Assembly: GCA_965262555.1 (NCBI GenBank)
Contig: OZ253543.1
Span: forward strand, 3,971,218-4,035,217
DNA from: Vicinamibacterales bacterium
GTDB taxonomy: Bacteria; Acidobacteriota; Vicinamibacteria; Vicinamibacterales; UBA8438
Direction of reading: 5' to 3'
Length of the DNA: 64,000 nucleotides
Position 1 is the first letter of the stretch, and every line of letters begins with the position of its first letter. Positions 928 through 46,883 of the stretch are shown here, piece by piece. Both the position numbers and the translations under genes were made by a program. Under the pieces are notes generated by a model that worked only from the letters and a program-made list of their open reading frames with translations, had not been told where the DNA came from and did no database searches.

Positions 928-1060
928 CGGGATCCTCCCTCCGGACGACTCGGCGTCCTGCTGACGGCCGATGTTACAGTCAGGGGTCGATTGTAGCTAG
1001 CGTCAGGGTTGTGCGGCTGCCGGCCGCCGCGATCCGTTGACAGCCGAGGAGGGACAACTC

Positions 1061-2704: not shown

Positions 2705-2719
2705 ACCCGGAGGAACACG

Positions 2720-4864: not shown

Positions 4865-4990
4865 CTGGCCGCCGCGCCGCGCCGGGGTGAGGAGAGCCGG
4901 CAGGTCCTTCCGGGGCGCCACCGCGGTCGTCTGGGGCGCCTCGGGCCAGGTGGTGAGGGCGCACGCAGCTCGAACTGACCGAGGCTCACG

Positions 4991-6085: not shown

Positions 6086-6333
6086 CGTCGGGTCTGGATA
6101 CAGTCTATCGCCGCCGGTACCGGAGAGCCGCCCGACCTCGGCGGGACGCATGCCCACGGCCGGGACGCCCGTTCGGGTTTGACGATCGCCCCTCGTGTCG
6201 ATATCGTGGGTCAAGTTCGGCGCACCGCGCCCCCCCGGGTGTGAATCCGCGTGAGGACAACCGGCAATCCGCCCTGTTCGAGGCGGCGGCATGTGGAGGT
6301 CCAAGGGGGGCGGGATGACCGGGAGGGGGCAGC

Positions 6334-7206
6334 ATGACCGGAAAGCGCGCCAATACGGACGATCGTCTGCGAATCTGGCTGGCCCGTCATGCGCTCGCGC
6401 GGTCTCGCCGTCTCGTACGGGGCGCCGGCGTCCTGACCAGCCTGCTCCTGGTCGGGTGCGGTCCGAGTCCGAGCTTCGAGAGCGCCGGGATCGGCCAGAC
6501 CGGCGTGACTGGAGCGGGGGAGGTGTCGATCCCGGTGCCGCCAGGGGTGAGTGGGGATCTCCTCGTGGCGATCCTCGGCGTTCCGGGGAATCCGAATACC
6601 TCCGGGCCCGAGGGATGGACGGCGGTGCCCGGCTTCGATGGCTTCAACGGCGCCATGTGTCAGTCGGATGGACAGGGGACCGCGTGTCAACTGGCCGTCT
6701 TCTACAGAATCGCCGACGGATCGGAGTCCACCGCCTCCTTTTCGTGGAGCGGCAGGCGGCAGGCGGCAGCTGCCGTGCTGCGGTTCTCGAACGTCGATGT
6801 GAACGAGCCGATCGGCGCGGCTGGCCCGCAGCGCGGGTCGTCGGATATGCCGACAGCGCCGGTGGTCGAGATCACCCGGGACGGGTCCCGCGCACTGCGG
6901 ATCGCCGTCGTTGAGCTGGACGAAGCGGCACCGTTTCTCCGCGGGGCGGTGGCGCTGGCCGACGAACCTCCCTCGTCACGGCTGAGCATCGTCTCGTTTC
7001 CTGCCGCCGCAGACGATCCGACGAACGGCTGTGGCCCGCCGTTGTCCGCGTGCGACCAGATCGACCGCGCCGTGGGGCTGGCCGTGTCGGACACGCGTCA
7101 CGCGACGGCCGGTGCCTCCGGTCCCGTCTCGTGGGAGCTCGCCGGCGGCGACCAATGGCTCACCGCCACGATAGAGATCAAGCGGCCGCCCGGGCAGGGA
7201 CGCTGA
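6334..7206 (+). CDS. hypothetical lipoprotein
   Basis: 290-aa ORF after GGGAGGGGG. Lipobox LLLVGC. No recognisable domain. Confidence 0.55.
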   Translation: MTGKRANTDDRLRIWLARHALARSRRLVRGAGVLTSLLLVGCGPSPSFESAGIGQTGVTGAGEVSIPVPPGVSGDLLVAILGVPGNPNTSGPEGWTAVPGFDGFNGAMCQSDGQGTACQLAVFYRIADGSESTASFSWSGRRQAAAAVLRFSNVDVNEPIGAAGPQRGSSDMPTAPVVEITRDGSRALRIAVVELDEAAPFLRGAVALADEPPSSRLSIVSFPAAADDPTNGCGPPLSACDQIDRAVGLAVSDTRHATAGASGPVSWELAGGDQWLTATIEIKRPPGQGR

Positions 7207-7340
7207 CGCCTCGCGCGTCGTCGAGTCGCCAACGCGCGCGGTCCATGTCGGGACCCAGCGAGAGCGCCGACGGAAGAGTGGGGAATGCACCGACAGCGCC
7301 CGTCCTGCCAGGTCCGGTGCGGTCCAGAGGAGCACGGCTG

Positions 7341-8059
7341 ATGAGAGTCACCACTCGCCAGTCGCACGTTGCCGTAGCGCTTGCCCTGAGCCTGGCCGCC
7401 TGCGGCGGGGCGCCGGATCGCCCCTCGGGGCGGAGGTCTCCGGAGCGATCCTCCGGGTGGATGGCGACACCGGCAACCTCACCGGCGCGTATCGTGACGG
7501 CACGTTCGTCATGAGCCACTTCTCGGGTGCGCGCCCGCTGCTGCTCGAGGTGACGCTCGAGGACGACGGCTCGCTCCGGCTGCTGCAGAACCGGCAACGG
7601 GAGCTGACGGCCGTCCGGTCGGACAGCGCGGCGGCCGCCGCGTTGCCCAAGCCGACCGATCCGTCCCGCCACACCACCGTCGCCGATCCGGATGAACCGT
7701 TTCGCTTCAGCTTCCCGGACCTCGAGGGGCGGCTCGTGACGAACGAGGATGCCCGGTTCGCCGGAGAGGTCGTGGTGGTGAACATCACCGGGAGCTGGTG
7801 TCCCAACTGCCACGACGAAGCGCCGTTCCTCGCGGAGCTGTATGACACCTACCGCGACCTGGGCCTGGCGATGGGGGCGTGGGTCGAGGAGGACCGCGCG
7901 CCGGAGCGCCTCGTGGCTTCCAAGCTCGACGCGGACGGCCAGGTGACGCTCACCCGTGCGCTCTGCCCGTACCCGCAGGTGGCGGAGTCCGACGGCAGCG
8001 GTGACGTGAACGACGAGCAGAGCTTTCGCTGCGTGACGGCCCCGACGGTGGACGAGTAG
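7341..8059 (+). pseudogene. TlpA-like thiol:disulfide oxidoreductase remnant, frameshifted near the 5' end and fused in frame to a tannase-family C-terminal tail
   Basis: Lipoprotein signal MRVTTRQSHVAVALALSLAACGG (frame of 7341) is out of frame with the ORF 7457..8059. That ORF carries VVVVNITGSWCPNCHDEAPFLAELYDTYRDLGL. After about 7866 the sequence switches to AWVEEDRAPERLVASKLDADGQVTLTRALCPYPQVAESDGSGDVNDEQSFRC. This tail matches the C-terminus of the tannase-family gene at 62574. Confidence 0.6.
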
Positions 8060-27256: not shown

Positions 27257-29359
27257 CTACCGCATGTCGTCAAGAAACTCTGAAGCCGGGTCCACTGCGC
27301 TGACGTGCAGGAAGTCGCGAGCCCGCGTACAGGCGACGTACAGGAGGTGCCGCTCGGTGTCGTAGACCTCCTTCAGGTCCGCATCGTCACCCACGGCGTC
27401 GATACGTGCTTGCAGGGGGACTACCTCATCGTCGCAGGCGATCACAGCCACGGCCTTGAACTCGAGGCCCTTGGCTAGATGCATAGTGCTCAGCGACACG
27501 CGTCCAGGTCTCATCTCAACGTGCCCGTCCAGAACCGCTGAAGGTACTCCGGCGGCCTTGGCCGCGGCCTGTGCTCGGTCGAGCTGCTCGCTGGAGCGCA
27601 CGAACATCCCGATCTCGTGCACCTGTACGCCGTTCGCTAGCCGCTCCTTCACCCATGCCGCAACGGCAGCGGTCTCCTCGTCGGCCGTGGCGCATACGCA
27701 GACAACAGGCGGTGGTCCATTGAATACCGACACTGTTTCCCGCCGAGCCTCCACGTTTCCGTCAACGTCCGCGATCTCGGGCCCCAGCAGGCGGTCCGCC
27801 TCCTCGCGAATCTGGTGCGAGGTGCGATAGTTGACCCTGAGCGTGCGGGACCGGCCGCGCACGTCGACACCGAGCGACTTCCAGGAGAACGGCTGCTGGA
27901 AGATGCGCTGGCCGAGATCGCCGGCGAAGAATAGCGCGTTGGGATGGTCGCCTCCGAGAGCGGCGAAGAAGCGCAACTGTGACACGGACAGGTCCTGGGC
28001 CTCGTCCACGACGGCGAAGTCGTAGGGCACTCGGCCCGTCTCGGCGATGTGTCGGGCCAGCGCAGTAGAGACCGCAGCCGGTGTGGTCAAGCCGAGGGCT
28101 TTCAGCCGCTCTCGCACCGTGGCAAAGACACGCCAGAGTGCTTCGCGTTTCGGCTCAGGCAACCGCGTCTTGCGACCCAGCCTAGCAACTTCGCGGTAAT
28201 CGTCCCACGACCCGAGTTGCCAGGCGTCCACTACCTGCTCCCATTCGTCAAGCAAGAATCGGCCGCTGAACCTGCCGTCGTCCTCCAGCGCGGATGCCTC
28301 GGCGAGCAGCCCGCTCATCTGCTCGAACGTGACGTACCGGACGGGTCCAAGTTGCGCCTGGTGCAAGCGCATACCGAGCGCATCCAGCGCGTGGACCTCG
28401 ACTCGCTCCGCCACGCGAGGCTCCGTGCCGACCAACCGGCGCAACTTCGCTTCGAGTAGGCGCGCCAGGGGTTCGGAGAACGTCGCCAGCAGGACACGGG
28501 CGTCTGGATTCGTGCGAGCCAAGTGCGCGGCGCGGTGGAGCGCCACGACGGTCTTGCCGGTGCCTGCCGAACCTGCCACCCGCGCTGGCCCTGCGTAATC
28601 ACGCTCTACCCATCGGCGCTGCTCGGGATGAAGGAAGACCGCCCACTTCTCCCAGGGCGCATCGAGGGCCTGTTCCAGCTCCTCGACGCTGGTGACTACA
28701 CGGAAGCGGCGCTGTGCGTCGGGGTGCTCGAACGGCGACAGCGCCGCTGGTGGCACCTCGGCCACCGCCGGCTTGCCGCCGGTGGCCAACTCCAACAACG
28801 CCTCCGCAGCCTCCGCCGGCAGGTGGTCGGCCAGAACAAGCAGGCTGTCCTCGTCGGCCTCGCGCACGTTGTCGAGCCACTCCGCAGGGACGCCGTAGCC
28901 CAGCAACTCGTCGTCCTCACGATCCGCGAACAGCGTGCCCCTGGGCTTCGCCTTCCCCACAGGGGCCGCCGTCGGTTCCGGTTCCGCCTGCGTGTAGGCC
29001 GGGACTACGATCTCGCGGACCGCCTCGCGGATCTCCACGAGCTGCGCCGCTCCGGTCTTCGGGTGCGTTTCGAGCTTGCGTCGTTCGGCCCAGTGGTAGG
29101 CCTTGTCGTGGTGATCCACGTAGCACAGCAGCAGACTGCTCTCGGAGCGGTGGACGATGATGCGGACGTCCACATTCACCCGCACCGACCAGAAGTTCTT
29201 GTCTCGCGCCTTGTCGAGCTTGTGGAAACTCAGGCCTGGACTGGCCGGGTTCATCTGCAGGTCGAATGCCGTGGTCTTGACTGCCTTCTGTTCGTCACCG
29301 TTCAGCCGGGCCAGGCCGTCGGTGAACGTGTCCGCGATGAGGAAGGTGGTCATTGCCAT
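27257..29359 (-). CDS. SF1 UvrD/Rep-like helicase with N-terminal RelE/ParE-fold domain
   Basis: N-terminus FHKLDKARDKNFWSVRVNVDVRIIVHRSESSLLLCYVDHHDKAYHWA (RelE/ParE-like). Walker A GSAGTGKT, motif II VVDEAQDLS, VNYRTSHQI, TMHLAKGLEFKAV, LLYVACTRARDFLHV. The start overlaps the upstream stop (ATGGCAATGA). Confidence 0.85.
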   Translation of the reverse strand: MAMTTFLIADTFTDGLARLNGDEQKAVKTTAFDLQMNPASPGLSFHKLDKARDKNFWSVRVNVDVRIIVHRSESSLLLCYVDHHDKAYHWAERRKLETHPKTGAAQLVEIREAVREIVVPAYTQAEPEPTAAPVGKAKPRGTLFADREDDELLGYGVPAEWLDNVREADEDSLLVLADHLPAEAAEALLELATGGKPAVAEVPPAALSPFEHPDAQRRFRVVTSVEELEQALDAPWEKWAVFLHPEQRRWVERDYAGPARVAGSAGTGKTVVALHRAAHLARTNPDARVLLATFSEPLARLLEAKLRRLVGTEPRVAERVEVHALDALGMRLHQAQLGPVRYVTFEQMSGLLAEASALEDDGRFSGRFLLDEWEQVVDAWQLGSWDDYREVARLGRKTRLPEPKREALWRVFATVRERLKALGLTTPAAVSTALARHIAETGRVPYDFAVVDEAQDLSVSQLRFFAALGGDHPNALFFAGDLGQRIFQQPFSWKSLGVDVRGRSRTLRVNYRTSHQIREEADRLLGPEIADVDGNVEARRETVSVFNGPPPVVCVCATADEETAAVAAWVKERLANGVQVHEIGMFVRSSEQLDRAQAAAKAAGVPSAVLDGHVEMRPGRVSLSTMHLAKGLEFKAVAVIACDDEVVPLQARIDAVGDDADLKEVYDTERHLLYVACTRARDFLHVSAVDPASEFLDDMR

Positions 29360-30510
29360 ACCAGCAGGTTTCCCTTGCCACGGTGCGGAACTCTTTGTTT
29401 GGGCCGCCAGCCTTCAGGCTCGAGCCGTCCACTCTCAATCCACTGCCGGATCCAGTCCTTGATATCGCGCTCCCATGTCATGGGCTGAGAGAGTGCTAGG
29501 TCCCAGAGGTCGTCGTAGAGAACGCGCTTCCTTGCCTCGAGGACGTCCTGGACCATCGCTCGCGATCGTGCCACATACCGGTCTCTCAGCAGTTCGTAGT
29601 GCGCCGAGCTATGCATGTCCTCGGCTCCAAAGAGGCTTGACATCCCGCTCAATTCACGCCTGCTGCGGTCCTGGACCCTCGCCCGTGCGGCTTCCTGGAC
29701 CTCCATGGCCTTCCGTTCCGCTTCCTTGAATACCTCGACACCTTTGCGGTGTCTCGTCGCATAGATCAGATGACAATGCGTCCGGTTGCGCCCGGGGTGC
29801 AGGACGATGGCGGAGCACACGTACCGGAATCCACCGAACTGACGAACGCTACTCTGGTACTCGTCAACGACAGCGTCGTCCCTATCCAGGCCCTGCAATC
29901 CAGCCACCCGCTCTTTCACACCGGGCCGCCCGAACAGCCTGTCGAAGCTCGCCTGAGTCTGCTGCTGCGGGGACTCGATGAACCGGCGGACATCCTTGGT
30001 CATCAGGTTGATCAGCACCTCGCCAGGTTCGACACTCAGAAGAGGCGCGATCGTATCCATCGCGAAGCCTGTCCAGCCGGTCGGGTCGATGAAGATGAAC
30101 GGGAACGTCTGGCGCCCATCGCGCCGCACGAAGTCGAGAATCGCGTCGACCGATTCCTCGAGGATGGCATTTCTGGTCTCAACCTCAGCATCGTCCACGG
30201 CGTCGGCGTAGGCCTTCAGTCTGGCGTGAGCATCTTCGTTCCGCTCCAGAAAGAAGCAGCGAAGCCCAACCTGACGGCCCGAATCCGCATGGCGGTCGCG
30301 CGCGCGCCGGAGTTCCTCGAGGGCGATGGAGAAGGATGTGTCGCGCAGATCATCCGTGTGGGCGTTCCACGGACCGGAAAAGCAATCGACGTAGCTGATG
30401 GAGTTCCAGTTCGACAGGACGATTGGTGCGAACCGGCTCAGGTACTTCCGGAGAATGAAGTGCTTAACGAGCGTCTGCTCCCGGCCGACGTAGGGGTCGT
30501 CCTCCTCCAT
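29350..30510 (-). CDS. three-Cys-motif partner protein TcmP (TIGR04474-like), copy 1
   Basis: LVKHFILRKYL, SYVDCFSGPW, CFFLERN, FIFIDPTGW, EVLINLM, DRLFG, HLIYATRHRKG. Follows a Gp37/Gp68 gene by 10 nt. Family name recalled from memory. Confidence 0.75.
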   Translation of the reverse strand: MEEDDPYVGREQTLVKHFILRKYLSRFAPIVLSNWNSISYVDCFSGPWNAHTDDLRDTSFSIALEELRRARDRHADSGRQVGLRCFFLERNEDAHARLKAYADAVDDAEVETRNAILEESVDAILDFVRRDGRQTFPFIFIDPTGWTGFAMDTIAPLLSVEPGEVLINLMTKDVRRFIESPQQQTQASFDRLFGRPGVKERVAGLQGLDRDDAVVDEYQSSVRQFGGFRYVCSAIVLHPGRNRTHCHLIYATRHRKGVEVFKEAERKAMEVQEAARARVQDRSRRELSGMSSLFGAEDMHSSAHYELLRDRYVARSRAMVQDVLEARKRVLYDDLWDLALSQPMTWERDIKDWIRQWIESGRLEPEGWRPKQRVPHRGKGNLLVWQ

Positions 30511-30520
30511 CGCGTTCCAA

Positions 30521-31315
30521 CTACACGCTCACGGGCGTCAACTCGCGTAGCGCCGTTGCCCGCGCGCTGTCGTCGGGCGGCGCAACTCTTGAACGCGTGG
30601 GAAACTGGTTATAGGTTCGCCCGTCGAGACGTCTCCCGGTCTCACGCTTGCGTACCCCGCCCCACTGTTTGAAGAAAAACGGCACGCTGGCATCTCGACA
30701 CTGGTCCCGAATGCCTCGGACCCAGTCCACCGACATCGGGCGCGCGCCCGGGCCGCTCTCGCCGCCGACGATCACCCAGTCGATACTGCGCAGGTCGAAC
30801 TGTCCCAAGTCTTCCAGAAGCGGCTCAATCGAGAGAAACCTGACAGCGGCCGGCGCGCGCCGAAGATGTTCGATTCGAACCAGTCCGTGCTTGCGGTTCT
30901 CGACACTGACGCCCCACCAGATGTTCGGGCACCGCGCCGCAAAACTCAGCTCACCGTTGAGGAGGCCTGCGAGACGCTCGGCACGCTTGGTGAGCACCTG
31001 GAACGTGTGCCAGTTGGCAGCAGCCATCACCTTCGCGACCGCGATCACGTACTCGTCAGGAACTCCATCGTGGAACAGGTCGCTCATCGAGTTCACGAAG
31101 ACCATACGCGGTGTGCGCCACCGGAGCGGGTCGCCAAGCTTCTCCGGGACGAGCCGCAGGTCGAATCCAAACTCGAAGGGATGGCCCGGCACGCCACGGA
31201 ACCGCTCCGCAAATGTCTCCGCGTAACAGTGAGCACACCCAAGGCTGATCTTCGTGCAGCCGCGCACTGGGTTCCAGGTGGCGTCGGTCCATTCGATCTT
31301 CGACTTGTCACTCAT
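30521..31315 (-). CDS. Gp37/Gp68 family (DUF5131, PF07505) three-Cys protein, copy 1
   Basis: MSDKSKIEWTDATWNPVRGCTKISLGCAHCYAE (C-x6-C-x2-C), FVNSMSDLFH, FLSIEPLLEDLG, WVIVGGESGPGARP, PFFFKQWGG. Start moved to ATG 31315 by homology with copy 2. Confidence 0.85.
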   Translation of the reverse strand: MSDKSKIEWTDATWNPVRGCTKISLGCAHCYAETFAERFRGVPGHPFEFGFDLRLVPEKLGDPLRWRTPRMVFVNSMSDLFHDGVPDEYVIAVAKVMAAANWHTFQVLTKRAERLAGLLNGELSFAARCPNIWWGVSVENRKHGLVRIEHLRRAPAAVRFLSIEPLLEDLGQFDLRSIDWVIVGGESGPGARPMSVDWVRGIRDQCRDASVPFFFKQWGGVRKRETGRRLDGRTYNQFPTRSRVAPPDDSARATALRELTPVSV

Positions 31316-31360
31316 GCGCGAGTCCCATTCCAATGTCCCCTACGCCCGTGACAGTCCAGG

Positions 31361-33111
31361 TCACACCCGGAACACCTTCATCACCTCGTCGCCGAGGTGG
31401 TTGATGACCTTCACGGCGTAGCGGCCGCTCGTGGGCTTGGGGAATGGGCGCGAGGTGTCGCTGCGTAAGGTGGCCCAGGCGTCGGGGTCGACCTCTGCCT
31501 TCAGAGTCGTCTTCAGCGCGCCGTACGGGTCGTTCTGGCCGAGGAAGTAGGCGTGCCGGACGAAGAAGCTTTCCTCGTTGTAGTCGGTATCGATAAACCA
31601 GCAGGCGATGCCGTCGGCGTTGTCGCTGCGGACTTCGCCGGTGCTGGGGTCGAACACGTCCACGCCCTTTACGCGCACGCGAAGGGCGCCGTCCTCCTCC
31701 TCGATCTGCTCAATGTCGGGCTCGCCGAACACTACGAACAGGTTGCCCTTATCGGTGGTCTTGAGGTCGCCGCCCATGTGGAGGTCGGCGTTCATCCGCG
31801 CTTTAAGAACAGGGATGCGGCCGAGCTTACTGAACTCCGACGCGTGGGCCTCGAAGTTGAACGCGCACGCGATCAGCACGTCGAAGCCGGAGTCACCTGC
31901 CTCGCGGGCGGACCCTACCAAGTCGGGGCGGCCGACGGTCCCAAACTCGGGCCCGATGAGGATGCCGGCGCGGCGCTCGGCATCGCCCTCGCGGTAGCGG
32001 CCCTCGGCGCAGATCAGCTGGCCGGGCCACGGCTGCAGGGAGGTGAACGTGATGCGGTCGTCCCTATCTTTCTGCTGGACGCCGGCCACCCTCAGGTTCT
32101 CCACTATCATCTGGTCGAATTGCTGTCCCACGCCGTAAGTGGGGCCACGCTCGGCCACCTTGAAGGGGTCGATCAGCTTGTCGTTCTCGTCCACGCCGAG
32201 CATGCGGTGGGGACTGAGGCTTTCGACGGTGAACGGGCCCGCGACGCGGACCTTCTTCCGGTCCTCGTAGGGCTTGTCGTAGAGGTACTCGAACTCGGCT
32301 TTCGCAGTGATGGAAGCATCAATGGCCTGCTGGCGGGCGATGCGCGCCTCCCAGAACTCCGCGAATGGCTTCGCGGCAGCCTTCGGCCAGTCGTCCGGTA
32401 CCTCGCGCGGGACCTCCCACTCAGCTAACTCGAACGCGGGCACCACCTCGCCGCTTGGCATCGTGAACGTGGCCTGCTCCTGGGCATCGAAGTTCACGGC
32501 TCCAGCCCGGCCGCCGGTCGTCACCTCACATGGCGTCTTGTGCCCGCACAGCGTCTGGTTGAGCACCGCCAACGCGTCCTCCACCCTCGGCTGGTGCTCT
32601 TCCCAGATGACGTCGATCTCCACGTTGTTGGCGATCGACTTCAGCGTGATGTGCGGCACGCGCTCGTAGACGAATCCCTGGCGGACGTTCCCATACGTCG
32701 GCTTCTCGACGTAAGGTTGCCCAGTCACCTCGGCCTGTTTCCGCAGACCGTCCTCAGAGTCCGCGAGCAGATAGAATGGGTAACGGGCGCCCATGACACG
32801 CGCGCGAGCGAGCGCCAGCGCCACCCGAGACGTGTCAATCGTGATCCAGCGTCGACCCCATTGCTCTGCTGTATAAGGGCTGGTGCCCGATCCGCATGTG
32901 GGATCCAGGACTAGATCGCCAGGATCCGTGCTCATCAAGATGCACCGCTGAACGACGCTGGTCGCCGTCTGAACTACGTACAGCTTTGGATCGCCGAATC
33001 CTGACTGGCGCGTGTCGTCCCAGATGTCCGAATGCGACTGACACGAAAAGTCACCAAAAGGGCGCACGAAGCCCAAGGTCGCGCCAGAGTACGTAAGCCT
33101 CTGGGCCTTCG
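31361..33111 (-). pseudogene. beta-class N6/N4 DNA methyltransferase, 5'-truncated (motif IV missing), with long C-terminal domain
   Basis: Motif I region TDPGDLVLDPTCGSGTSPYTAEQWGRRWITIDTS is present, but no DPPY-type motif precedes it. The first 19 codons of ORF 31361..33169 are IS end or CTAG sequence. Confidence 0.7.
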
Positions 33112-34512
33112 CTAGCAGCCCGTGGTAGAAGGGGCTCTTCGTAAATCGATGGGTAGGTGTTCGTGACACCGTGTCACAGGGTCGCTACACGACCAATCCG
33201 GGCGATCGCGCGCCTCTGGTGCCCAGGAGCGCGATACGAGGGTCCAGAGGCAACTGAGACCGGCGATCAAAGCGCCGAACACGGCGGCGGCGCGGCCTTG
33301 GAGGCTCCTTGGCGTACCGACGCCCGTCAGCTGCCGCATGAGGAGTCCCAGATTGAACCCGCAGACGTGGACGAGCACGCGCTTGAGGATATTGGGATGC
33401 CCGCGCAGATGCACCCGGCGCATCCGGCCGGTCTCATAGAGATGCGCGTTGGGCCGTTCCAGCAGCTCGCCGCGCTGGCGCAGCAGCCGTCGCCCGCGCG
33501 CGCCCCGAATCCGCCGCCGATTGGCATACACCGCTGCGCGCGCCCCCGCCTTGCCCTTCCACGTGCGCCGCCCGCGATCCGGCTCCGACACGTAACTCCG
33601 CACCCCGATCGCGGCACACCCGACCATCGTCTCGTTGCTGTGATACCCCTTGTCGCCCACGACCTCGACAATCCCGGCGGCGCCGACCGCTTCGACCTGT
33701 TCCGCCGCGGTGATGAGGGTTTCGACCATCGTCGTCGTGTCGCCCTCGTCCGCGTCCTGCACCGTCACGCCCACAATGGCCCCCGTCTCCAGGTCGACCG
33801 CGTGCTCGGCGGTATGGGCCAGATGCGTCCGCCCGTCCTTCATCTTCGTGATTTTCGCGTCCGGATCCTGGGGATGCGTCCAGTCGTCGTTGGACCCTTT
33901 CTTCTTGCGCTTCCGGTCGAAGCGGGCCAGTTCAGCCCGCGTCGGTGTGGCGATACCGGATGCCGCCGCGAGCCGCGTCAACCAGGCCTCGTACTCCTCG
34001 CCCGTGTCCCGGCGCACGATGCTTCGCATCGCCGCGTTGGCTTCCAGCGTCGTCGCATCGATCCCGATCGTGTGCCCGTGGACGAGGTGGGCGTCGGCCA
34101 GACGCTGCAACACCCACGTGAACACGGCCTGGTGCGTCTCGAGGTCGATCAGGCGCCGGGTGCGCGACAGCGTCGAGTGGTCGGGCGGGGCCTCGTGCAG
34201 CGCGAAGTCCAGAAACTCGCGGATGCTCAGCGAGTCGGCGGCGCGCCACGCGATCGCCCGTTCCGAGTCCAGGCCTTCGAAGTAGCCGAGCAGCAGCAGC
34301 CGGAAATAGCGGCCCGGCGCCAGACTCGGCCGGCCGACCCCGTCGGCGTAGAACGCCGCGCACTGCGCTTCGACGAAGGCATCGAAGTCCGCCTCGTCAA
34401 GCGTGCGATTCAGGCGCTCGTAAAACGGGTGCCCCGCGCTCTGCGGCAAATCCGTGGTGGCCACCCACATCGTCGATTGGCGCGCCCGGCGCCGTCGTTT
34501 GCCCATCGCCAT
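33112..34512 (-). CDS. IS5/IS1182-family DDE transposase
   Basis: MWVATTDLPQSAGHPFYERLN, GRPSLAPGRYFRLLLLGYFEGLDSERA (InsH N-terminal type), IGIDATTLEANAA, VVGDKGYHS. The stop codon TAG lies in the flanking CTAG. Confidence 0.85.
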   Translation of the reverse strand: MAMGKRRRRARQSTMWVATTDLPQSAGHPFYERLNRTLDEADFDAFVEAQCAAFYADGVGRPSLAPGRYFRLLLLGYFEGLDSERAIAWRAADSLSIREFLDFALHEAPPDHSTLSRTRRLIDLETHQAVFTWVLQRLADAHLVHGHTIGIDATTLEANAAMRSIVRRDTGEEYEAWLTRLAAASGIATPTRAELARFDRKRKKKGSNDDWTHPQDPDAKITKMKDGRTHLAHTAEHAVDLETGAIVGVTVQDADEGDTTTMVETLITAAEQVEAVGAAGIVEVVGDKGYHSNETMVGCAAIGVRSYVSEPDRGRRTWKGKAGARAAVYANRRRIRGARGRRLLRQRGELLERPNAHLYETGRMRRVHLRGHPNILKRVLVHVCGFNLGLLMRQLTGVGTPRSLQGRAAAVFGALIAGLSCLWTLVSRSWAPEARDRPDWSCSDPVTRCHEHLPIDLRRAPSTTGC

Positions 34513-34579
34513 GCCCGAAGTGTAGTACGAGCGGTCAATCGTGTCGATCCCTATAACGAAGGACTTTCACCACGGGCTG
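33116..34579 (-). mobile_element. intact IS5/IS1182-like insertion sequence flanked by CTAG on both sides
   Basis: Ends are CAGCCCGTGGTAGAAGG (33116) and the reverse complement of CAGCCCGTGGTGAAAGTCC (34579). CTAG at 33112-33115 and 34580-34583. Single 466-aa transposase ORF. Confidence 0.85.
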
Positions 34580-34663
34580 CTAGCACTCACTGCCGCGGCA
34601 CGGGCAGTGGCGCCGTCCGTGTCCACCGCGATGCTGTGCGCCCCCGCCAGAAGTTCCGCGTAA

Positions 34664-35445: not shown

Positions 35446-35944
35446 CTCATGGCCGACAACGACGTGCGCTCCTCTCAATGTTGTACTATCGCCCCTTCGC
35501 CATGCGAGCTGAGGTCGCCGCAGGGTCCTCGTCGTTCCTAGCGGCTCTGTCGACGACGGCAGGAAACGGGACAATGCGCACGCCGCGCTCAAGCGGATAT
35601 ACGCGTCCCCTCGGCGGTCTCGCCCCTCCACTTGGCCGGCACCCGCCCGCCGGCCCGCTGAGCGTCTTGGACATTGAAGCGACGGCCCTTCGCTGCTCGT
35701 CATGAACGAGTGGTCGCCACATTGAGGCAACACGCCTCACAGCGAAGGAGGGTGTATCCGGACTAGAAGCAACATCTGGCAGGGACCCTACTGGAAGATG
35801 TGGACCCGAGAGCGACGCCGTCCCGCGCCCCGTTCCCTGTTGCCTGGGCAATGAAGAGGGTTGACACGTCGCCAGTGTCCACACGCGCGGAGCTCAGACC
35901 GACCGAGAAGAAACCAAAGACTTCGAGAACACGAGGTAGACCAC

Positions 35945-37813
35945 ATGAGAGCTGACGCCGTTTCTCTACTAGCAATCTTCGAAAAGAAGATGCGCCTCGA
36001 GGTTCCTTTGTTTCAACGGCAATATGTCTGGACGAAGGAGCAACAATGGGAGCCGCTCTGGGAAGATATTGAACGCAAGTTCTCCGATTATCTCGATGGA
36101 CGGAAGGACACGCCCGTGCACTTCCTCGGAGCGATCGTGCTTGACCAGAAGCAAACGCCCACCACCCATGTCGAGAAACGACAGGTCATAGATGGGCAAC
36201 AACGATTGACAACGCTGCAGATCTTTCTCTCTGCATTTCGAGATTTTTGCCATGAGCATGAGTGCGAGGAACTCGCAAGCGAATGCGACGGCTTCACGCT
36301 CAACCGTGGCATGATGGCTGAACCGGAGATCGATAGGTTTAAGGTCTGGCCAACCAATCTTGACCGCAAGCAATTCACGGATGTTGTAGCGTCACGTTCG
36401 CGCGAAGAGTTGGAACGGCGGCACCCGGTAGTCCGCAGGAAGTATGCACGGCAACCGGATCCACGGCCGCGCATGGTCGAGGCCTATATTTTCTTTCGTG
36501 AGAGAATTGACGCTTTTTTTGTCGGTGCCAATGGCGAGGCACCTCTTGCCGCGGAGGAGGATCTCGCGGTTCGCCTTGAAGATTGTTTTCAGGCCCTCAA
36601 GAATGCACTTCAAATCGTGACAATTGATTTGGATCACGACGATGATGCTCAAGTCATTTTCGAAACGCTCAATGCGCGTGGCGAACCGCTTCTTCCTGCC
36701 GATCTGCTGCGCAACTTTATATTTCTCCGAGCGGCGCGGAACGGCGAACCGGTCGAAGCATTGTATGAACAGTACTGGAAAGATTTCGATAATTATTTCT
36801 GGCGCACACCCGTGAAACAGGGAAGGTTGTTGAGACCGCGCAGCGACCTATTCATCCAGCATTTTCTTGCCAGCCGACAGACCTACGACATTCCCATTAA
36901 GCACCTTTTTGTGGAGTACAAGTATTGGATTCAACGCAAGGCACCGTTCGAGTCAGTAGCCGATGAGCTAGCAGAACTCGCGCGCCAAGGTCATGATTTT
37001 CGGCGCATTCTCGAACCGAAAAAGAATGATTCGCTGTACTCACTCGCAGTGTTCCTGGACGCCTTTGATGTGCGAACGTCCTATCCGCTTTTGTTGTCGC
37101 TGCTCGATGTCGGCATCAGCGATGAAGAATGGCGGGCCGTTTCAAATATGCTTGAGAGCTATTTGTTGCGACGGGGTGTTTGCGGGCTTACCACAAAGAA
37201 CTATAATCGAGTTTTTCTAGCAATAACACGTACTCTCCGGCGCGATGGCGTAAATGCCGAGAACCTAAAAACGTACCTCTTATCACAATCTGGCGAGTCC
37301 ATTGAATGGCCGACAGATGACGCTTTTTCCGAGGCGTGGCGAACTTCGTATGCATACCGCATTCTGAACAATCGGAAGATCGTGCATATCCTCAAGCGTT
37401 TAAACGAGACCTACTACGACAGCAAGATGGAAACGGTCTCCATTGAGGACGCGCTAACAGTTGAGCATATTTTGCCGCAGGGATGGATCGAGAGCTGGCC
37501 GCTTGAGGACGGCAGTCGCGGAGTGCCTGTCCTTGAGTTGTGGGGCGCCGATGAACACGACCCGCGTGTAGCGCAAACCCGGGCGAGAAACGTAGCACTC
37601 CAAACGTTTGGAAATCTCACCATCCTGACGCAAAAGCTAAATTCCTCTGTGTCCAACGGATCGTGGACCATGAAGCAACCAGCGCTACAGAGCCACTCGC
37701 TGTTGCCGATCAATCAGCAGCTTCAGAATAGGAATGTCTGGAATGAGGCGGCGATACTGGCGCGATCGAATGAGTTGTTGGAGCGCGCATTGCAATTGTG
37801 GCCGCGCTCGTAG
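35945..37813 (+). CDS. GmrSD-family type IV (modification-dependent) restriction endonuclease, DUF262 + DUF1524
   Basis: ATG 35945. LEVPLFQRQYVW and IDGQQRLTTLQIFL (DUF262/ParB-like). C-terminal LTVEHILPQGW...FGNLTILTQKLNSSVSN (DUF1524 His-Me). Visibly lower GC than the flanks. Confidence 0.85.
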   Translation: MRADAVSLLAIFEKKMRLEVPLFQRQYVWTKEQQWEPLWEDIERKFSDYLDGRKDTPVHFLGAIVLDQKQTPTTHVEKRQVIDGQQRLTTLQIFLSAFRDFCHEHECEELASECDGFTLNRGMMAEPEIDRFKVWPTNLDRKQFTDVVASRSREELERRHPVVRRKYARQPDPRPRMVEAYIFFRERIDAFFVGANGEAPLAAEEDLAVRLEDCFQALKNALQIVTIDLDHDDDAQVIFETLNARGEPLLPADLLRNFIFLRAARNGEPVEALYEQYWKDFDNYFWRTPVKQGRLLRPRSDLFIQHFLASRQTYDIPIKHLFVEYKYWIQRKAPFESVADELAELARQGHDFRRILEPKKNDSLYSLAVFLDAFDVRTSYPLLLSLLDVGISDEEWRAVSNMLESYLLRRGVCGLTTKNYNRVFLAITRTLRRDGVNAENLKTYLLSQSGESIEWPTDDAFSEAWRTSYAYRILNNRKIVHILKRLNETYYDSKMETVSIEDALTVEHILPQGWIESWPLEDGSRGVPVLELWGADEHDPRVAQTRARNVALQTFGNLTILTQKLNSSVSNGSWTMKQPALQSHSLLPINQQLQNRNVWNEAAILARSNELLERALQLWPRS

Positions 37814-41060: not shown

Positions 41061-41229
41061 CTCGCGTTGGAAGAAGGGATGCCCGCCGCCCCGAGGTAGG
41101 TCCGACGGCGCCACCCACATCGCCTGTTGGGACCCGTCGTCGCGGGTGGTGCCCATCGCCATGGGGCCGCAGTGTAGTACAGAGGATCGGTCCTGTCGAT
41201 CCCGCAAACCGACTTTCGCCACAGACTGT
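41061..41229 (-). mobile_element. solo end of a diverged IS5/IS1182-like element (IR + first ~35 transposase codons)
   Basis: Minus strand reads MAMGTTRDDGSQQAMWVAPSDLPRGGGHPFFQRE, against MAMGKRRRRARQSTMWVATTDLPQSAGHPFYER in the intact IS. The end GACTTTCGCCACAGACTG+TTAG parallels GACTTTCACCACGGGCTG+CTAG. Confidence 0.7.
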
Positions 41230-41362: not shown

Positions 41363-42116
<754 letters not shown>

Positions 42117-42127
<11 letters not shown>

Positions 42128-43217
42128 CCCGAACCCGGAATATTGGGTCGAGTACGGGCCTTTCCAGCGGGTCAAACACGACCTGATTCGCGCGTATCTC
42201 GGTGGATGGTTCCCCAAGCTTGGAACCTGGGCCAGGCGCGTGCTGTACGTAGACACACACGCCGGCCGCGGCCGGTACGTCACGGGCGAGCCGGGATCTC
42301 CGCTCGTCGCACTGACTACGTTCCTCAGTCACAGCTACCGGGACGAGTTGCTGAAGAAATCCGAGTTCCACTTTCTGTTCATCGAACGAGACGTTGGAAA
42401 CCTGAGCATGCTGAATGCCGAACTGAAGGCACTTGGCGCGCTGCCGAGCCGGGTGTTGGTCGATCGACAGCATGGGGACGCGTTTCGATGGCTGTCGGAG
42501 GCCGTCGAACGGTTGCGGAAGAGCGGTAAGAACATGGCACCGGCCTTTGTGTTCGTCGACCCGTACGGCTTCAAGGTGCCGGCCGAGTTACTCGCCGATC
42601 TGATGCGCGCTGGCCGAGTCGAGCTCTTCATCAACATGATCTGGCGCGAGCTCGACATGGCCGTCCAGCAACGTCCGGAGCCCGGAGAGGGTATGGCCCG
42701 GACTCTTGACACCATCTTCGGCGGGGAGGATTGGCGAACGGAGATCACGGCGCCCGACGTCAACGAACGTATGCGCCAGGCTGTTCGTCTTTTGGCGCGA
42801 AACGTTGGTGCGAAGTGGTGGACCTACGTACGCATGGTTACCGGTGGCGAGGCCACGCGATACATCCTTCTTCACCTCACGAACCACGACAAGGGTCGTG
42901 ATCTCATCAAAGACTGTATCTGGAGCATCATCCCGGAGGGTGGCTTCGAGGTCTTGAAATCGGAAGACCCTCGGCAGCTCATGTTGATCGAGAAGGAGCC
43001 GGACTTCGCACCCTTGAGGGCTTGGGTTCTTCAACGACTCGCCGAGGGATCGCAGCGATGGAGCACCCTCGAGGACGGCATTCGAAGTACGCAGTGGCGA
43101 GCAAGGCACCTGAACGACATGGTCAAAGATCTTCGTCGCGACCACATCATCGTTGCCAATGACTTCAGCGGCCGGTTCTCGAGAACTGCGAATCCGCTCC
43201 TGCGGCTCCCGTCGTGA
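42117..43217 (+). CDS. three-Cys-motif partner protein TcmP, copy 2 (first canonical start only at GTG 42240)
   Basis: Frame is open from 42054. DPNPEYWVEYGPFQRVKHDLIRAYL (42126-42200) is homologous to the TcmP copy 1 N-terminus but has no ATG/GTG/TTG before 42240. Then LYVDTHAGRGRY, FLFIERD, FVFVDPYGF, ELFINMI, TIFGG, YILLHLTNHDKG. Confidence 0.75.
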
Positions 43218-43445: not shown

Positions 43446-46400
43446 ATGAGACAGACGACTGACGCCCTTGTTCGCGCACCCACGGACCTCAGCAACTTCC
43501 TGAGCTGCCGACACCTCTCCACGCTGGACCTACGGGCGGCGCGAGGCGAGGTGGAGCGTCCGAAGCGATACGACCCGGTTCTCGAGGACCTCCGTGCCCG
43601 AGGCCTCGCGCACGAGCGGGCGTACCTGGAACGCCTGCGGGCCGAAGGGCTCACGATCGCCGGCGTCAGCGAGATCGGAGACGGTGCTCCTGTCTACGGC
43701 GCGGAGGCGACTCTCGCCGCCATGCGCGAGGGGGTCGACGTCGTCTACCAGGCCACCCTCGAGGACGACCGCTGGTCTGGTCGAGTCGACTTCCTCCGCC
43801 GCGTCAACGTCCCGAGCGACCTCGGTGCCTGGTCGTACGAGCCGTTCGACACCAAGCTTGCTAGAGAGACCAAGGCCGGGACGATCCTCCAGCTCTGCGT
43901 CTACGCGTACCTGCTTGAGAATACCCAAGGGGTGCGGCCGGGCTCTATGCACGTCGTGACGCCGGCCACCGGCTTCGAGCCGACGAGCTACCGGGTCGAC
44001 GACTACGGCGCCTACTTCCGCCTGCTCGAGCGGGATATCGACCAGTTCCTGGCCGGGCCTAGCGAGACTTATCCGGAGCTGGTGTCGCACTGTGACTACT
44101 GCGCCTGGTGGTCGGCGTGCGCGGCGCGTCGTCGCGGGGACGATCACCTCTGCTACGTGGCCGGGATCTCCGGTGCCCAGATCAAGAGTCTGCGCGCGTT
44201 GGGCATCGAGCGGCTGGCCCAGCTGGCGGCGCTCGATCCCGTGCCAGCGCCGCCCCAGGGATCGAGAGAGGCGTTGGCACGCGTGCGCGATCAGGCGCGG
44301 CTGCAAGTCGTCGGCCGCGAGAGCCAGGCGCCGGTGCACGAGCTCAAGGAGCCCTTCGACGCTGAGCACGGGCTCGCGCTGCTCCCCGAGCCTACACCCG
44401 ACGACATCTTCCTCGACTTCGAGGGCGATCACTTCGCCGCGGAGGGGGTGCGCGAGTACCTGCTTGGCTATGTGACCAGAGGACCGGACGGCGAGCCAGT
44501 CTACACGGCGCTCTGGGCCACCACACGCGAAGAGGAGCGCGCCGCCTTCGAGCGCTTCATGGACCTCGTGACCGCGACCCGGGCCTGCAACCCGGAGGCC
44601 CACGTCTACCACTTCGCCCCGTACGAGCCGGTGGCGCTCAAGCGCCTCATGGGTGTGTACGCCAGCAAGGAGATCGAGCTCGATGCGCTCCTGCGCGGGC
44701 GCGCATTCGTCGACCTGCACATGGTAGTCAAGCGGGCCCTCATCGCGAGCGTCGAGCGCTACTCCATCAAAGAGCTGGAGCCCTTCTTCGGCTACGAGCG
44801 CGCGCAGGATCTGCGCGAGGCGACGATGAGCCGGCGCATCGTCGAGAACGCCGTCGCCGCTGGCGACCTCGACAAGGATCTCGAGCCGCACCGGCGGGTC
44901 GTCGAGGACTACAACCGCGAGGACTGCGAATCGGCGTCGCGGCTGCGTGAGTGGCTGGAACGGCTCCGGGCCGAGGTAATCGCGAGCGGCCACGAACTCC
45001 CTCGCCCTGCGGTGGAGAGCGGAGAGGCGTCGGAGGCGATTAGCGACCTCGATCGCGAGCTGCAGCGACTGCGTGACGGTTTACTTGACGGAGTCCCCAC
45101 GGAACCACGGGATCGGTCGGCGGACCAGCAGGCGCGGTTCGCGCTCGCGCACATGATGGAGTTTCACCGCCGGGAGGACAAAGCGGGCTGGTGGGAGTAC
45201 TTCCGCGTTCTCGGGCTGGAGGCGGGTGAGCTCGAAGAGGAACGGCGAGCCCTGGCCGGCTTGCACTTCCTCGAGCAACTCGACGACAAGCGTGCTCCGC
45301 TTCAGCGGTACCTCTTTCCTGCTCAGGAGCTCGACGCGCGCGAAAAGGACGATGTCTTCGATTGCGACGGCAATAGGATCGGCAAGGTCCACGCGGTCAG
45401 CTACGGCGAGTGCACCATCGATATCAAGAAGATGGTCAAGACGGCGGGCGAGCACCCGACCGATGTCGTGTTCCACAACATCGTCCCCTCCGACACGCTG
45501 CGACAATCCCTCATGCGGTTCGGGGATGCCGTCCTCAACCGGGGATTCTCGCCGCGTGAACCGTACCGCGCCGCGGTGGAGCTGATCCTTCGCAGGCCGC
45601 CCCCCATGAGCGAGGACGGCTCCAGCCTGCAACGCCACGGCGAGAAGACCGTCGACGCGGCCTGCCGCATCGCACGCGCCCTGGACGGGAGCGTACTTGC
45701 CATCCAAGGCCCGCCCGGCACTGGAAAGACGTACACCGGGGCGCACGTCATCTGCGCGCTCGTGCGCGCGGGACTGAGAGTCGGCGTCACGGCGGTGAGC
45801 CACAAGGTCATCCTGAACCTCCTCGAGGATGCCGCCGCGCAAGCGCGGGCCGACGAGACGGCCATGACGATCGTTCACCGCCAGGACGGCGAGTACGAGG
45901 GCGAGTGGAGGATCCGGCGAGAAACAAACTACGACTCCATCCGAGGGGATCTCAACAGCGGCGACACCAACGTCCTCGGCGCCACCGCGTGGTGCTGGGC
46001 GCGACCCGACTTCGAGCAGAGCGTCGACGTCTTGATCGTCGACGAGGCCGGTCAGATGTCGCTCGCGAATGTGTTGGCTGCCGCCCCGGCCGGGCGGAGC
46101 CTCGTCCTGCTTGGTGATCCGCAACAGCTCGAGCAGCCGTTGCAGAGTAGTCATCCCGAGGGCAGCGAGGTCTCGGCGCTCTACCACCTACTGGACGGCG
46201 AGGACACGATGCCCGTCAACAAGGGGCTGTTCTTGGCGGAGACCTACCGGCTGCACCCCGACATCGCAACGTTCACCTCCGAGATTTACTACGAAGGCAA
46301 GGTCGCGGCTCGCCCGGGCCTGGAGCGGCAAGCCATTGTCCCTAACGGCGATTCGGACTCCGCTCTCACGGGCTCAGGGCTCGTCTATGTGTCCGTTCCC

Positions 46401-46883
46401 CACACCGGACATACGGCGAGGTCGCTGGAGGAGATCGAGGTCATCGCACGCCTCATCGACGAACTCGTCGGCCGCTGCAGCTGGCAGGACAAGGACGGGA
46501 TCGTCAAACCGCTCACGGAGAGCGACATCCTCGTCATTGCCCCATACAACGCTCAGGTCTCCGCGTTGATCGAGGCGCTCCCCGCGCTGAGCAATCGAAT
46601 CGGCACGGTCGACCGCTTCCAGGGTCAAGAGGCACCAGTCGTTGTCTACTCGATGACGTCCTCGAGCCCGGAACACGCACCACGGGGGATGGAGTTTCTC
46701 TACAGCCGATTCCGTTTCAACGTGGCCACCTCTCGGGCCCGAGCCCTATGCATTCTGGTAGGCAGCCCCGAGTTGTTTCGACCGGAATGCCGAACGCCAC
46801 GCCAGATGAAGATGGCGAACGGATTCTGCCGATACTTGGAGCTGGCGAGAGTCGTCGAGCGCAGTGAATCAGCGCCGCTGTAG
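43446..46883 (+). CDS. RecB/Cas4-like PD-(D/E)xK nuclease + RNaseH-like domain + SF1B (Upf1/Dna2-like) helicase fusion (TM0106-type N-terminus)
   Basis: N-terminus: C21, RVDFL, YEPFDTKL, QLCVYAY, CDYCAWWSAC (4 Cys). Middle: IFLDFEGD, VYHFAPYE, YNREDCES. C-terminus: IQGPPGTGKT, LIVDEAGQMS, LLGDPQQLEQP, TVDRFQGQEAPVVVYS, RFNVATSRAR. Confidence 0.85.
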   Translation: MRQTTDALVRAPTDLSNFLSCRHLSTLDLRAARGEVERPKRYDPVLEDLRARGLAHERAYLERLRAEGLTIAGVSEIGDGAPVYGAEATLAAMREGVDVVYQATLEDDRWSGRVDFLRRVNVPSDLGAWSYEPFDTKLARETKAGTILQLCVYAYLLENTQGVRPGSMHVVTPATGFEPTSYRVDDYGAYFRLLERDIDQFLAGPSETYPELVSHCDYCAWWSACAARRRGDDHLCYVAGISGAQIKSLRALGIERLAQLAALDPVPAPPQGSREALARVRDQARLQVVGRESQAPVHELKEPFDAEHGLALLPEPTPDDIFLDFEGDHFAAEGVREYLLGYVTRGPDGEPVYTALWATTREEERAAFERFMDLVTATRACNPEAHVYHFAPYEPVALKRLMGVYASKEIELDALLRGRAFVDLHMVVKRALIASVERYSIKELEPFFGYERAQDLREATMSRRIVENAVAAGDLDKDLEPHRRVVEDYNREDCESASRLREWLERLRAEVIASGHELPRPAVESGEASEAISDLDRELQRLRDGLLDGVPTEPRDRSADQQARFALAHMMEFHRREDKAGWWEYFRVLGLEAGELEEERRALAGLHFLEQLDDKRAPLQRYLFPAQELDAREKDDVFDCDGNRIGKVHAVSYGECTIDIKKMVKTAGEHPTDVVFHNIVPSDTLRQSLMRFGDAVLNRGFSPREPYRAAVELILRRPPPMSEDGSSLQRHGEKTVDAACRIARALDGSVLAIQGPPGTGKTYTGAHVICALVRAGLRVGVTAVSHKVILNLLEDAAAQARADETAMTIVHRQDGEYEGEWRIRRETNYDSIRGDLNSGDTNVLGATAWCWARPDFEQSVDVLIVDEAGQMSLANVLAAAPAGRSLVLLGDPQQLEQPLQSSHPEGSEVSALYHLLDGEDTMPVNKGLFLAETYRLHPDIATFTSEIYYEGKVAARPGLERQAIVPNGDSDSALTGSGLVYVSVPHTGHTARSLEEIEVIARLIDELVGRCSWQDKDGIVKPLTESDILVIAPYNAQVSALIEALPALSNRIGTVDRFQGQEAPVVVYSMTSSSPEHAPRGMEFLYSRFRFNVATSRARALCILVGSPELFRPECRTPRQMKMANGFCRYLELARVVERSESAPL

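Follow-up and report, generated by a model that had tools for sequence, protein, structure and literature searches.

A decayed Res-Mod-helicase operon carrying an embedded DUF5131-TcmP cassette that likely modifies nucleic acid

Results

Gene content of the locus

The window analyzed in this work is a 64,000-nucleotide stretch of contig OZ253543.1 (assembly GCA_965262555.1) from a Vicinamibacterales bacterium. It contains four co-oriented genes, for a fragment of an N6/N4 methyltransferase (MTase), a protein of the phage Gp37/Gp68 family DUF5131, TcmP (three-Cys-motif partner protein) and a UvrD-like helicase with a RelE-fold N-terminus (Table 1). A previous reading of this DNA, referred to below as the original prediction, regarded the four genes as a candidate new system, in which an enigmatic pair of proteins, DUF5131 and TcmP, modifies nucleic acid in a defence context and the helicase serves as its effector. 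Our analysis favors a different reading, to which we assign a probability of about 70%. The region is composite. It consists of a decayed Res-Mod-helicase operon and an autonomous DUF5131-TcmP cassette embedded in it, and the cassette likely carries out S-adenosylmethionine (SAM)-dependent modification of nucleic acid.

A check of the open reading frames (ORFs) and translations of the window confirmed all four genes, with the coordinates, strand and spacing previously described. The MTase fragment and DUF5131 are separated by 45 nucleotides (nt), DUF5131 and TcmP by 10 nt. The TGA stop codon of TcmP overlaps the ATG of the helicase inside ATGGCAATGA. The true start of the helicase is probably the second ATG at 29353, which gives an ATGA overlap with the TcmP stop. 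For DUF5131 an alternative TTG start at 31333 is possible; its homologues begin at ATG. Profile searches, suggested as a check in the original prediction, gave scores above the cut-offs for DUF5131 (PF07505, 330 bits, cut-off 28.9), TcmP (TIGR04474, 137 bits, cut-off 53) and the helicase (UvrD-helicase PF00580, 59.8 bits, cut-off 23; UvrD_C PF13361, 60 bits, cut-off 25.6). The translation of DUF5131 contains the RGC-x6-C-x2-CYAE and GGESG motifs, as previously described.

Table 1. Features of the window, by position
Feature	Position	Strand	Properties
RelE-fold::UvrD helicase	27257..29359	minus	700 residues; Pfam UvrD-helicase, UvrD_C
TcmP, three-Cys-motif partner protein	29350..30510	minus	386 residues; TIGR04474
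DUF5131 (phage Gp37/Gp68 family)	30521..31315	minus	PF07505
Mod 3' remnant, N6_N4 MTase fragment	31361..33115	minus	ORF call to 33169 runs into the insertion sequence
IS1182/IS5-like element	33111..34584	minus	transposase 33112..34512; transpos_IS1182, DUF772/DDE_Tnp_1
GmrSD	35861..37813		type IV enzyme
Second DUF5131	41363..42127	plus	PF07505 322 bits; 69% identical to first
Second TcmP	42117..43217	plus	TIGR04474 157 bits; 22% identical to first
Nuclease-helicase	43446..46883	plus	1145 residues; TM0106-type RecB/Cas4-like nuclease, RNase_H_2, SF1 AAA_11/AAA_12

The MTase gene is a remnant of a Type III-like restriction operon

The MTase fragment covers only positions 140-217 of the 221 positions in the Pfam N6_N4_Mtase profile, and it matches only the C-terminal part of the PADLOC model MTase_III (PDLC03632). 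An intact variant of the locus, L001, was found in the same metagenome by exact-protein lookup of the window TcmP. Its genes are arranged in the order Res (1024 residues, ResIII and RE_endonuc), Mod (963 residues), DUF5131, TcmP and helicase. Positions 28768-33115 of the window and 7396-11743 of L001 are 99.93% identical. The L001 sequence upstream of 7396 (positions 1-7395, which include Res) has no match anywhere in the window. In the intact Mod, DPPY is located at residue 171. The remnant in the window starts near residue 380 and spans approximately residues 380-963 of 963.

The breakpoint of the homology between Mod and L001 coincides with the IS1182-like insertion sequence (IS) element, whose 21-nt terminal inverted repeats are located at 33111-33131 and 34564-34584. 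Res and the N-terminal ~380 residues of Mod were lost through the element together with an adjacent deletion. Judged from this alignment, the MTase of the window is an inactive 3' remnant of a Type III Mod. Restriction and methylation are lost in this genome because the IS-associated deletion took Res and the DPPY part of Mod. The near-identity to the intact L001 indicates that this loss is very recent.

Res and Mod in L001 resemble those of Type III restriction-modification (R-M) systems of the EcoP15I kind. In Res, an endonuclease domain accompanies the Walker A and DEAH motifs, and the protein matches the curated NCBIfam BPTD_3080 family restriction endonuclease over its full length with 1307 bits. 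Mod is an N6/N4 enzyme with DPPY and matches MTase_III with 1292 bits. Unlike Type III R-M systems, the operon has a constant third gene, the helicase, and Mod has a long C-terminal extension. Canonical PADLOC REase_III models match Res only weakly (1e-6). The window itself departs further from a Type III system, since Res is absent and the truncated Mod is without the catalytic DPPY.

The helicase is part of a widespread operon with interchangeable cargo

The helicase starts with a domain of RelE/ParE fold (residues ~1-90), which a linker joins to a UvrD-like superfamily 1 (SF1) helicase. The RelE fold proposed for the N-terminus is supported by several lines of evidence. The region has a weak HigB-like match in Pfam (E=0.0036), and homologues carry the JGI annotation RelE. 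In the AlphaFold2 (AF2) model, residues 1-84 have predicted local distance difference test (pLDDT) values of 65-85, which indicates moderate confidence. When this N-terminal model was searched with Foldseek, nearly all matches were RelE, YoeB, YafQ, ParE or HigB toxins, with template modeling (TM) scores of 0.7-0.8 and root mean square deviations of 2-3 Å over ~85 residues. More than 8000 homologues of the helicase, with ~70% identity over the full length, are found in Acidobacteriota, Verrucomicrobiota, Methylomirabilota and Alphaproteobacteria.

Three independent homologues among these relatives (L004, L008 and L011) each close a Res-Mod operon at its 3' end, and the genes that separate them from Mod differ. 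These genes encode IetA and IetS in one locus, two unknown proteins and an HNH protein in another, and an FRG-domain protein that corresponds to PDC-S15 in the remaining one. Inserts are also found between Res and Mod, a DUF1016 gene (PDC-S02) in one locus and an unknown gene of 280 residues in another.

To characterize this arrangement, metagenome contigs were scanned with the helicase and 80 loci were kept (L104-L183). Genes were predicted with our own simple gene caller and searched with locally built hidden Markov models. Loci were considered informative (n=54) when Mod was detected or when the sequence upstream measured 3 kb or more. Mod is located upstream of the helicase in the same orientation in 51 of these 54 loci, and Res is also seen in 29. 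The helicase follows Mod directly in 16 loci. In 35 loci the slot between them is occupied by cargo, with one gene in 19, two in 7, three in 7 and four to five in 2. There is a second slot between Res and Mod, which contains inserts in 10 of the 29 loci. A PADLOC scan of 66 pooled cargo proteins identified Hachiman HamA/HamB, HEC-01A, HEC-06/GmrSD-like proteins and a type IV restriction endonuclease among the 366 PADLOC models matched.

These arrangements point to a widespread Res-Mod-helicase operon in which the helicase is a conserved third gene rather than a partner of the DUF5131-TcmP pair. They also place the MTase fragment in this restriction operon and not with the pair. A role of the helicase as effector of the pair, as originally proposed, does not agree with the 16 loci in which it directly follows Mod, or with those in which other cargo precedes it. 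Whether Mod or cargo adjoins the helicase, the stop of this upstream gene is usually within about -4 to +30 nt of the helicase start, often with an ATGA overlap. Because Mod and cargo usually show the same spacing, the tight junction is a property of the slot. The overlap between TcmP and the helicase had been taken as a layout typical of translational coupling; such a layout is seen whatever the cargo. The cassette occupies precisely the interval from the Mod stop to the helicase start, and the helicase ORF is intact. In our reading, the tight junction comes from read-through of the operon across the slot and does not mark a specific partnership.

Two further loci of this frame contain DUF5131. 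In L179 it is directly upstream of the helicase, and in L142 it is on the opposite strand just downstream. The pair therefore entered the frame more than once or at more than one position.

The frame is similar to Hma, BREX, DISARM and Type I R-M, for which a guilt-by-embedding architecture has been described (Payne et al., bioRxiv 10.1101/2024.01.29.577857). In all of them, conserved frame genes flank a slot of interchangeable defence cargo, here Iet, Hachiman, GmrSD-like and HEC/PDC genes. The frame differs from the known ones in its components, which are a Res of the BPTD_3080 family, a Mod of 930-960 residues and the RelE-fold::UvrD helicase, and in having no Hma model among the PADLOC matches listed. 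We found no description of a Res-Mod-RelE::UvrD frame in the open-access literature, queried with Type III plus UvrD/RelE and with BPTD_3080. As far as this literature shows, the frame with its cargo slot is what is new at this locus.

Several named systems were considered for these genes. With Gabija, the helicase gives generic GajB matches only; its neighbors are TcmP and small ORFs, and none of the neighboring genes scanned matches GajA. No Hma model is among the best 25 PADLOC families listed for each of Res, Mod and the helicase. Searches for MADS and DISARM in PADLOC gave generic helicase or MTase matches or none.

The DUF5131-TcmP pair is a self-contained cassette

The original prediction placed the genes under no named system. 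The pair is however present in PADLOC. In the first copy, TcmP matches M30A (2.5e-14) and DUF5131 matches M41B (1.6e-101). In the second copy, in which the two genes overlap, TcmP matches M30A (4.2e-17) and DUF5131 matches M30B (1.5e-102). These profile matches identify the pair as the candidate phage-defence system PDC-M30/PDC-M41, already catalogued and derived by guilt-by-embedding (Payne et al., bioRxiv 10.1101/2024.01.29.577857). Our pair is similar to PDC-M30/M41 in that adjacent TcmP-like (A) and DUF5131 (B) genes are embedded in an R-M operon. Unlike the frames from which PDC-M30/M41 was derived (BREX, DISARM and Type I R-M), the host here is a Type III-like Res-Mod-helicase operon. 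The definition of the candidate implies no mechanism. The only activity-related data that we found for PDC-M30/M41 are a correlation in P. aeruginosa strains (PMC10855318).

The pair occurs in several other contexts. Close TcmP homologues (57-60% identity) were examined in three lineages. In two of them the pair is alone among housekeeping genes, and no helicase or MTase is present within 8 kb. In the third it is located inside a Type I hsdR-hsdS-...-hsdM operon. One locus, L037, has the Type III order Mod-pair-Res, and another, L026, has a Type I arrangement. In a metagenome-assembled genome of Acidobacteriota (L082:9965-11905), DUF5131 and TcmP are fused into a single protein of 646 residues. 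It matches TIGR04474 with 152 bits, and its TcmP portion is 64% identical to the second TcmP of the window. This natural fusion is direct evidence that DUF5131 and TcmP act together. The recurrent pairing and the fusion support the view that PF07505 and TIGR04474 form an obligate partnership, which, as the original prediction noted, has no function assigned to it; the searchable literature yielded no functional study.

To survey the pair, species-representative genomes were scanned with a DUF5131 alignment, which gave at least 588 matches. Eighty loci with DUF5131 relatives of at least 55% identity were kept, and genes were predicted with a home-made gene caller. Together with earlier context loci, 87 DUF5131 genes were available. 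TcmP is located downstream in 35 and upstream in 24, and none was detected adjacent in about 25. In some of the genes without an adjacent TcmP, the pair is broken by IS elements. For 30 paired loci, the two neighbors on each side (120 in total) were compared with Pfam, and 182 families were matched. By raw counts N6_N4_Mtase occurs twice, and no helicase family occurs twice. The enrichment of pairs beside helicases expected in the original prediction is thus not observed in these 30 genomes. A search with a single TcmP sequence returned 2139 clusters at 50% identity.

Two groups of loci suggest how the cassette was placed. In the Type I loci L017 (6977-7159) and L026 (ORF of ~91 residues), a short HsdM N-terminal fragment is just upstream of DUF5131 and a full hsdM is downstream of TcmP. 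The duplicated 5' end of hsdM may record the route of cassette insertion. In six Acidobacteriota loci (L034, L040, L052, L057, L062 and L080), a pair in the order TcmP-then-DUF5131 follows a protein of 516-552 residues. This neighbor is probably a member of the Carboxyl_trans family, the most frequent one among the neighbors (5 of 120). Its position points to a conserved, lineage-specific site of insertion beside a housekeeping gene.

Matches to DUF5131 are also present in 440 plasmid records and in 181 phage records, most of which belong to phages of Mycobacterium, Gordonia and Burkholderia. A tblastn search of phages with one TcmP gave 13 records; the family is highly divergent and this query is too insensitive for co-occurrence counts. 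The family namesake, Che9c gp68, is located amid early DNA-metabolism genes and beside a DNA MTase, without an adjacent TcmP. In Gordonia phage WelcomeAyanna (L102, genes 41-42) and related Gordonia phages, the convergent pair has the integrase on one side and the immunity repressor on the other; TcmP carries the annotation 'methyltransferase' in WelcomeAyanna. In the related Gordonia phage CarolAnn, genes 43/44 are co-expressed with the repressor, and the region holds prophage-expressed defence genes. The defence papers on CarolAnn and mycobacteriophage Sbash describe an unrelated RexAB-like system and do not cover the pair.

As genomic arrangements, these contexts show the pair to be self-contained. 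It can stand alone, be encoded as a fusion, or reside in an R-M operon, a prophage immunity region or a plasmid, and its MTase and helicase neighbors appear to be dispensable.

DUF5131 and TcmP are predicted SAM-dependent enzymes

The Cys triad C-x6-C-x2-C and a GGE motif are invariant in an alignment of DUF5131, and the latter is GGESG in the copy of the window. These motifs are those of a radical-SAM superfamily enzyme, which we predict DUF5131 to be. The triad would bind the cluster. Like spore photoproduct lyase, the DUF5131 subgroup with the CX6CX2C motif belongs to one megacluster in RadicalSAM.org, in which it forms Megacluster-5-2 (PMC9477430). DUF5131 stands apart from the radical-SAM enzymes known to act on nucleic acids in the CX6CX2C spacing, in its small size (~250 residues) and in giving no match to the Pfam Radical_SAM family. 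Sequence searches of the PDB with DUF5131 and with both TcmP copies gave nothing meaningful. The likeness of DUF5131 to prokaryotic viperins is a functional analogy only.

TcmP was expected to have a methyltransferase-like layout, and structure prediction agrees. Its AF2 model has a pLDDT of 89.9 and a predicted TM score of 0.89. The top Foldseek match is RlmJ, a distant one (E=3e-4, TM scores 0.39/0.52) and barely ahead of generic class I MTases. TcmP is thus modeled as a class I SAM methyltransferase fold, similar to RlmJ, with a helical C-terminal extension. Conservation was analyzed in 177 diverse sequences. The KH dyad (K16 and H17), motif I (Y40, D42 and G46), motif II (E89) and motif IV, DPxGW (D142, P143, G145 and W146), are 82-100% conserved, and D42, G46, E89, D142, P143 and G145 reach 86-100%. 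We read TcmP as a predicted catalytically competent enzyme similar to amino-methyltransferases.

Escherichia coli RlmJ, the 23S rRNA m6A2030 MTase, has the KH dyad, motif I (Y-x-D-T-H-A-G-x-G-R-Y) and an Asp-Pro motif IV at equivalent positions. In the second TcmP of the window, LYVDTHAGRGRY aligns where RlmJ has LYLDTHAGAGRY, a motif match of 15 residues. The RlmJ residues K18 and D164, which have equivalents in TcmP, are presumably catalytic. TcmP differs from RlmJ in motif IV, which is DPxG[W/F] and not DPPY, in an extra C-terminal region of ~120 residues, and in its obligate radical-SAM partner. Membership of TcmP in the RlmJ family was considered, and the likeness is at the level of fold and motifs only, not of sequence.

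The two proteins diverge at very different rates. Over 46 pairs, the median pairwise identity is 66% for DUF5131 and 25% for TcmP, and 37% of the TcmP comparisons are unalignable. The identities of the two window copies in Table 1, obtained with BLASTP, follow the same pattern. A conserved catalytic subunit with a fast-diversifying TcmP fits a role in specificity or in an arms race.

A second pair and helicase in the same island

As previously described, the surroundings of the locus contain GmrSD, IS elements (IS1182-like and IS66) and another DUF5131-TcmP pair, after which a different helicase is encoded (Table 1). Homologues of this nuclease-helicase are named 'TM0106 family RecB-like putative nuclease', and an exact-protein lookup of the protein gave no record. 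A 95%-identical relative in the same metagenome (L184) adjoins SIR2_2 and a HerA-like ATPase and is without the pair. More distant relatives are flanked by IS elements or located in defence islands. The original prediction took the repeat of the trio as support for a functional unit. Since relatives of the second helicase occur without the pair, the repeat is a coincidental adjacency in a defence/IS island. By its genomic distribution, the nuclease-helicase appears to be an independent mobile single gene, and it may be a defence gene itself.

In the second TcmP, the stretch from the upstream stop to 42240 (42054..42240) offers no ATG, GTG or TTG start, and the next in-frame start is GTG at 42240. 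Homology and the TIGR04474 match begin near 42126-42168. The codon at 42117 is CTG; ATG occupies this place in the L074 orthologue. Either the start codon is mutated, which would make the gene a pseudogene, or translation begins at a non-canonical codon.

Just upstream of the second DUF5131, a stretch of 97 nt (41110..41203) is 76% similar to part of the IS1182-like element. GmrSD also matches PADLOC HEC-06. Its segment has a G+C fraction of 0.53, compared to about 0.68, which suggests a separate recent acquisition. No tRNA at an island border is present in the window.

Discussion

We propose that DUF5131 and TcmP form one SAM-dependent nucleic-acid-modifying enzyme, as a heterodimer or a fusion. 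TcmP would choose the base to be modified, probably an adenine of DNA or RNA, flip it out and perhaps methylate it. By means of a 5'-deoxyadenosyl radical, DUF5131 would then bring about a second chemical change, either in this nucleotide or beside it. The role of the pair is most likely in phage-host or mobile-element conflict. Of the original prediction, the enigmatic nucleic-acid-modifying pair in a defence context stands. The new four-gene system does not: the pair was already catalogued, and the MTase and the helicase belong to its frame. The original prediction had named in advance a system definition already covering the genes, and a lack of enrichment of the pairs next to helicases, as observations that would count against the system. 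The PADLOC definition and the helicase counts are these two observations.

An integrated system of four or three genes, with the helicase as effector of a modifying pair, would account for the tight packing of the genes, for the TcmP stop over the helicase start and for the helicase that also follows the second pair. The comparative context largely refutes it. The same helicase is found directly after Mod in 16 loci, or after IetAS, Hachiman, FRG or HNH genes with equal junctions. Close TcmP homologues are found without helicase or MTase within 8 kb. Among the 120 neighbors of 30 pairs no helicase family recurs, and the close relative of the second helicase beside SIR2 and HerA has no pair. 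We consider such a system very improbable. Some observations point the other way and weigh against the composite reading. UvrD-like genes are located near the pairs in L040 and L089 and beside an unpaired DUF5131 in L033, and in S. meliloti the TcmP gene SMa2243 and the adjoining gene for the Hna helicase are induced together (PMC12445080). The arrangement is also abundant in the source environment, and a lineage-specific functional link between pair and helicase may exist. Other points count against the composite reading as well. The link between TcmP and RlmJ is not detected by profiles, with no Pfam match, no PDB sequence match and an hhalign probability of 0.7%. No experimental study of DUF5131, PF07505, TIGR04474 or PDC-M30/M41 was found in the searchable literature. 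Genes recognized by PADLOC as defence genes are a minority of the 120 neighbors, and most stand-alone pairs have housekeeping neighbors. The proposed defence role of the pair is therefore based mainly on embedding, mobility and prophage position.

Several alternatives accept the pair as a unit and differ in what it does. It could be an anti-restriction or hypermodification module with which phages and other mobile elements protect themselves, by altering their own DNA so that it escapes host nucleases; bacterial copies would then be derived from prophages or co-opted. The phage-named family with its many phage and plasmid records, the Che9c gene amid early DNA metabolism and beside a DNA MTase, and the modification-dependent type IV GmrSD nearby in the window would all fit. 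However, many chromosomal copies have no prophage context, and others are embedded in restriction operons alongside bona fide defence cargo. The position between integrase and repressor in the Gordonia phage is moreover one at which related phages have prophage-expressed defence genes. This account is unlikely. Alternatively, the pair could be a selfish or defensive module comparable to R-M, in which the variable TcmP sets specificity and methylates self, as Mod or HsdS would, and the DUF5131 radical damages unmarked targets in the place of Res or HsdR. The autonomous two-gene cassette with its patchy, mobile distribution, the MTase fold of TcmP with intact catalytic motifs, the conserved enzyme with a hypervariable partner, the fused form analogous to Type IIG enzymes, and the presence in R-M loci and a prophage immunity region are consistent with it. 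There is, however, no sign of a nuclease-like or toxic activity, and no radical-SAM restriction effector is known. TcmP diverges over its whole length and not in a recognizable target-recognition domain, and the Che9c DUF5131 has no adjacent TcmP. We regard this module as distinctly unlikely.

The target could also be rRNA or tRNA, with an RlmJ-like enzyme and a radical enzyme of the Cfr/RlmN type altering translation during conflict. The best structural match of TcmP is indeed a 23S rRNA m6A MTase, including motif I and the KH likeness, and a prophage copy bears the annotation RNA methyltransferase. That annotation is however non-experimental, DUF5131 groups with spore photoproduct lyase, which repairs DNA, and not with RlmN or Cfr, and the genomic company of the pair is DNA-directed R-M systems. 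An RNA target is quite improbable. More speculatively, the pair could provide an R-M-like immunity based on radical chemistry, in which TcmP reads and marks a sequence or structure and DUF5131 damages or hypermodifies what is unmarked, and the frame could, separately, be an undescribed three-component docking variant of Type III. Both ideas are long shots.

The composite reading, a decayed restriction operon with an autonomous embedded pair, remains our preferred one. The pair is widespread, and neither of its proteins has a solved structure. New in this work are the RlmJ-like model of TcmP with its conserved motifs and the contrast between a conserved DUF5131 and its hypervariable partner; the work also shows the autonomy of the pair and its occurrence as a fusion. 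For experiments, two genes, not four, should be cloned, and the effect to look for is one on a base of DNA or RNA that depends on SAM. The Res-Mod-helicase frame extends the idea of embedded defence to a Type III-like operon, and may provide a further source of guilt-by-embedding candidates.

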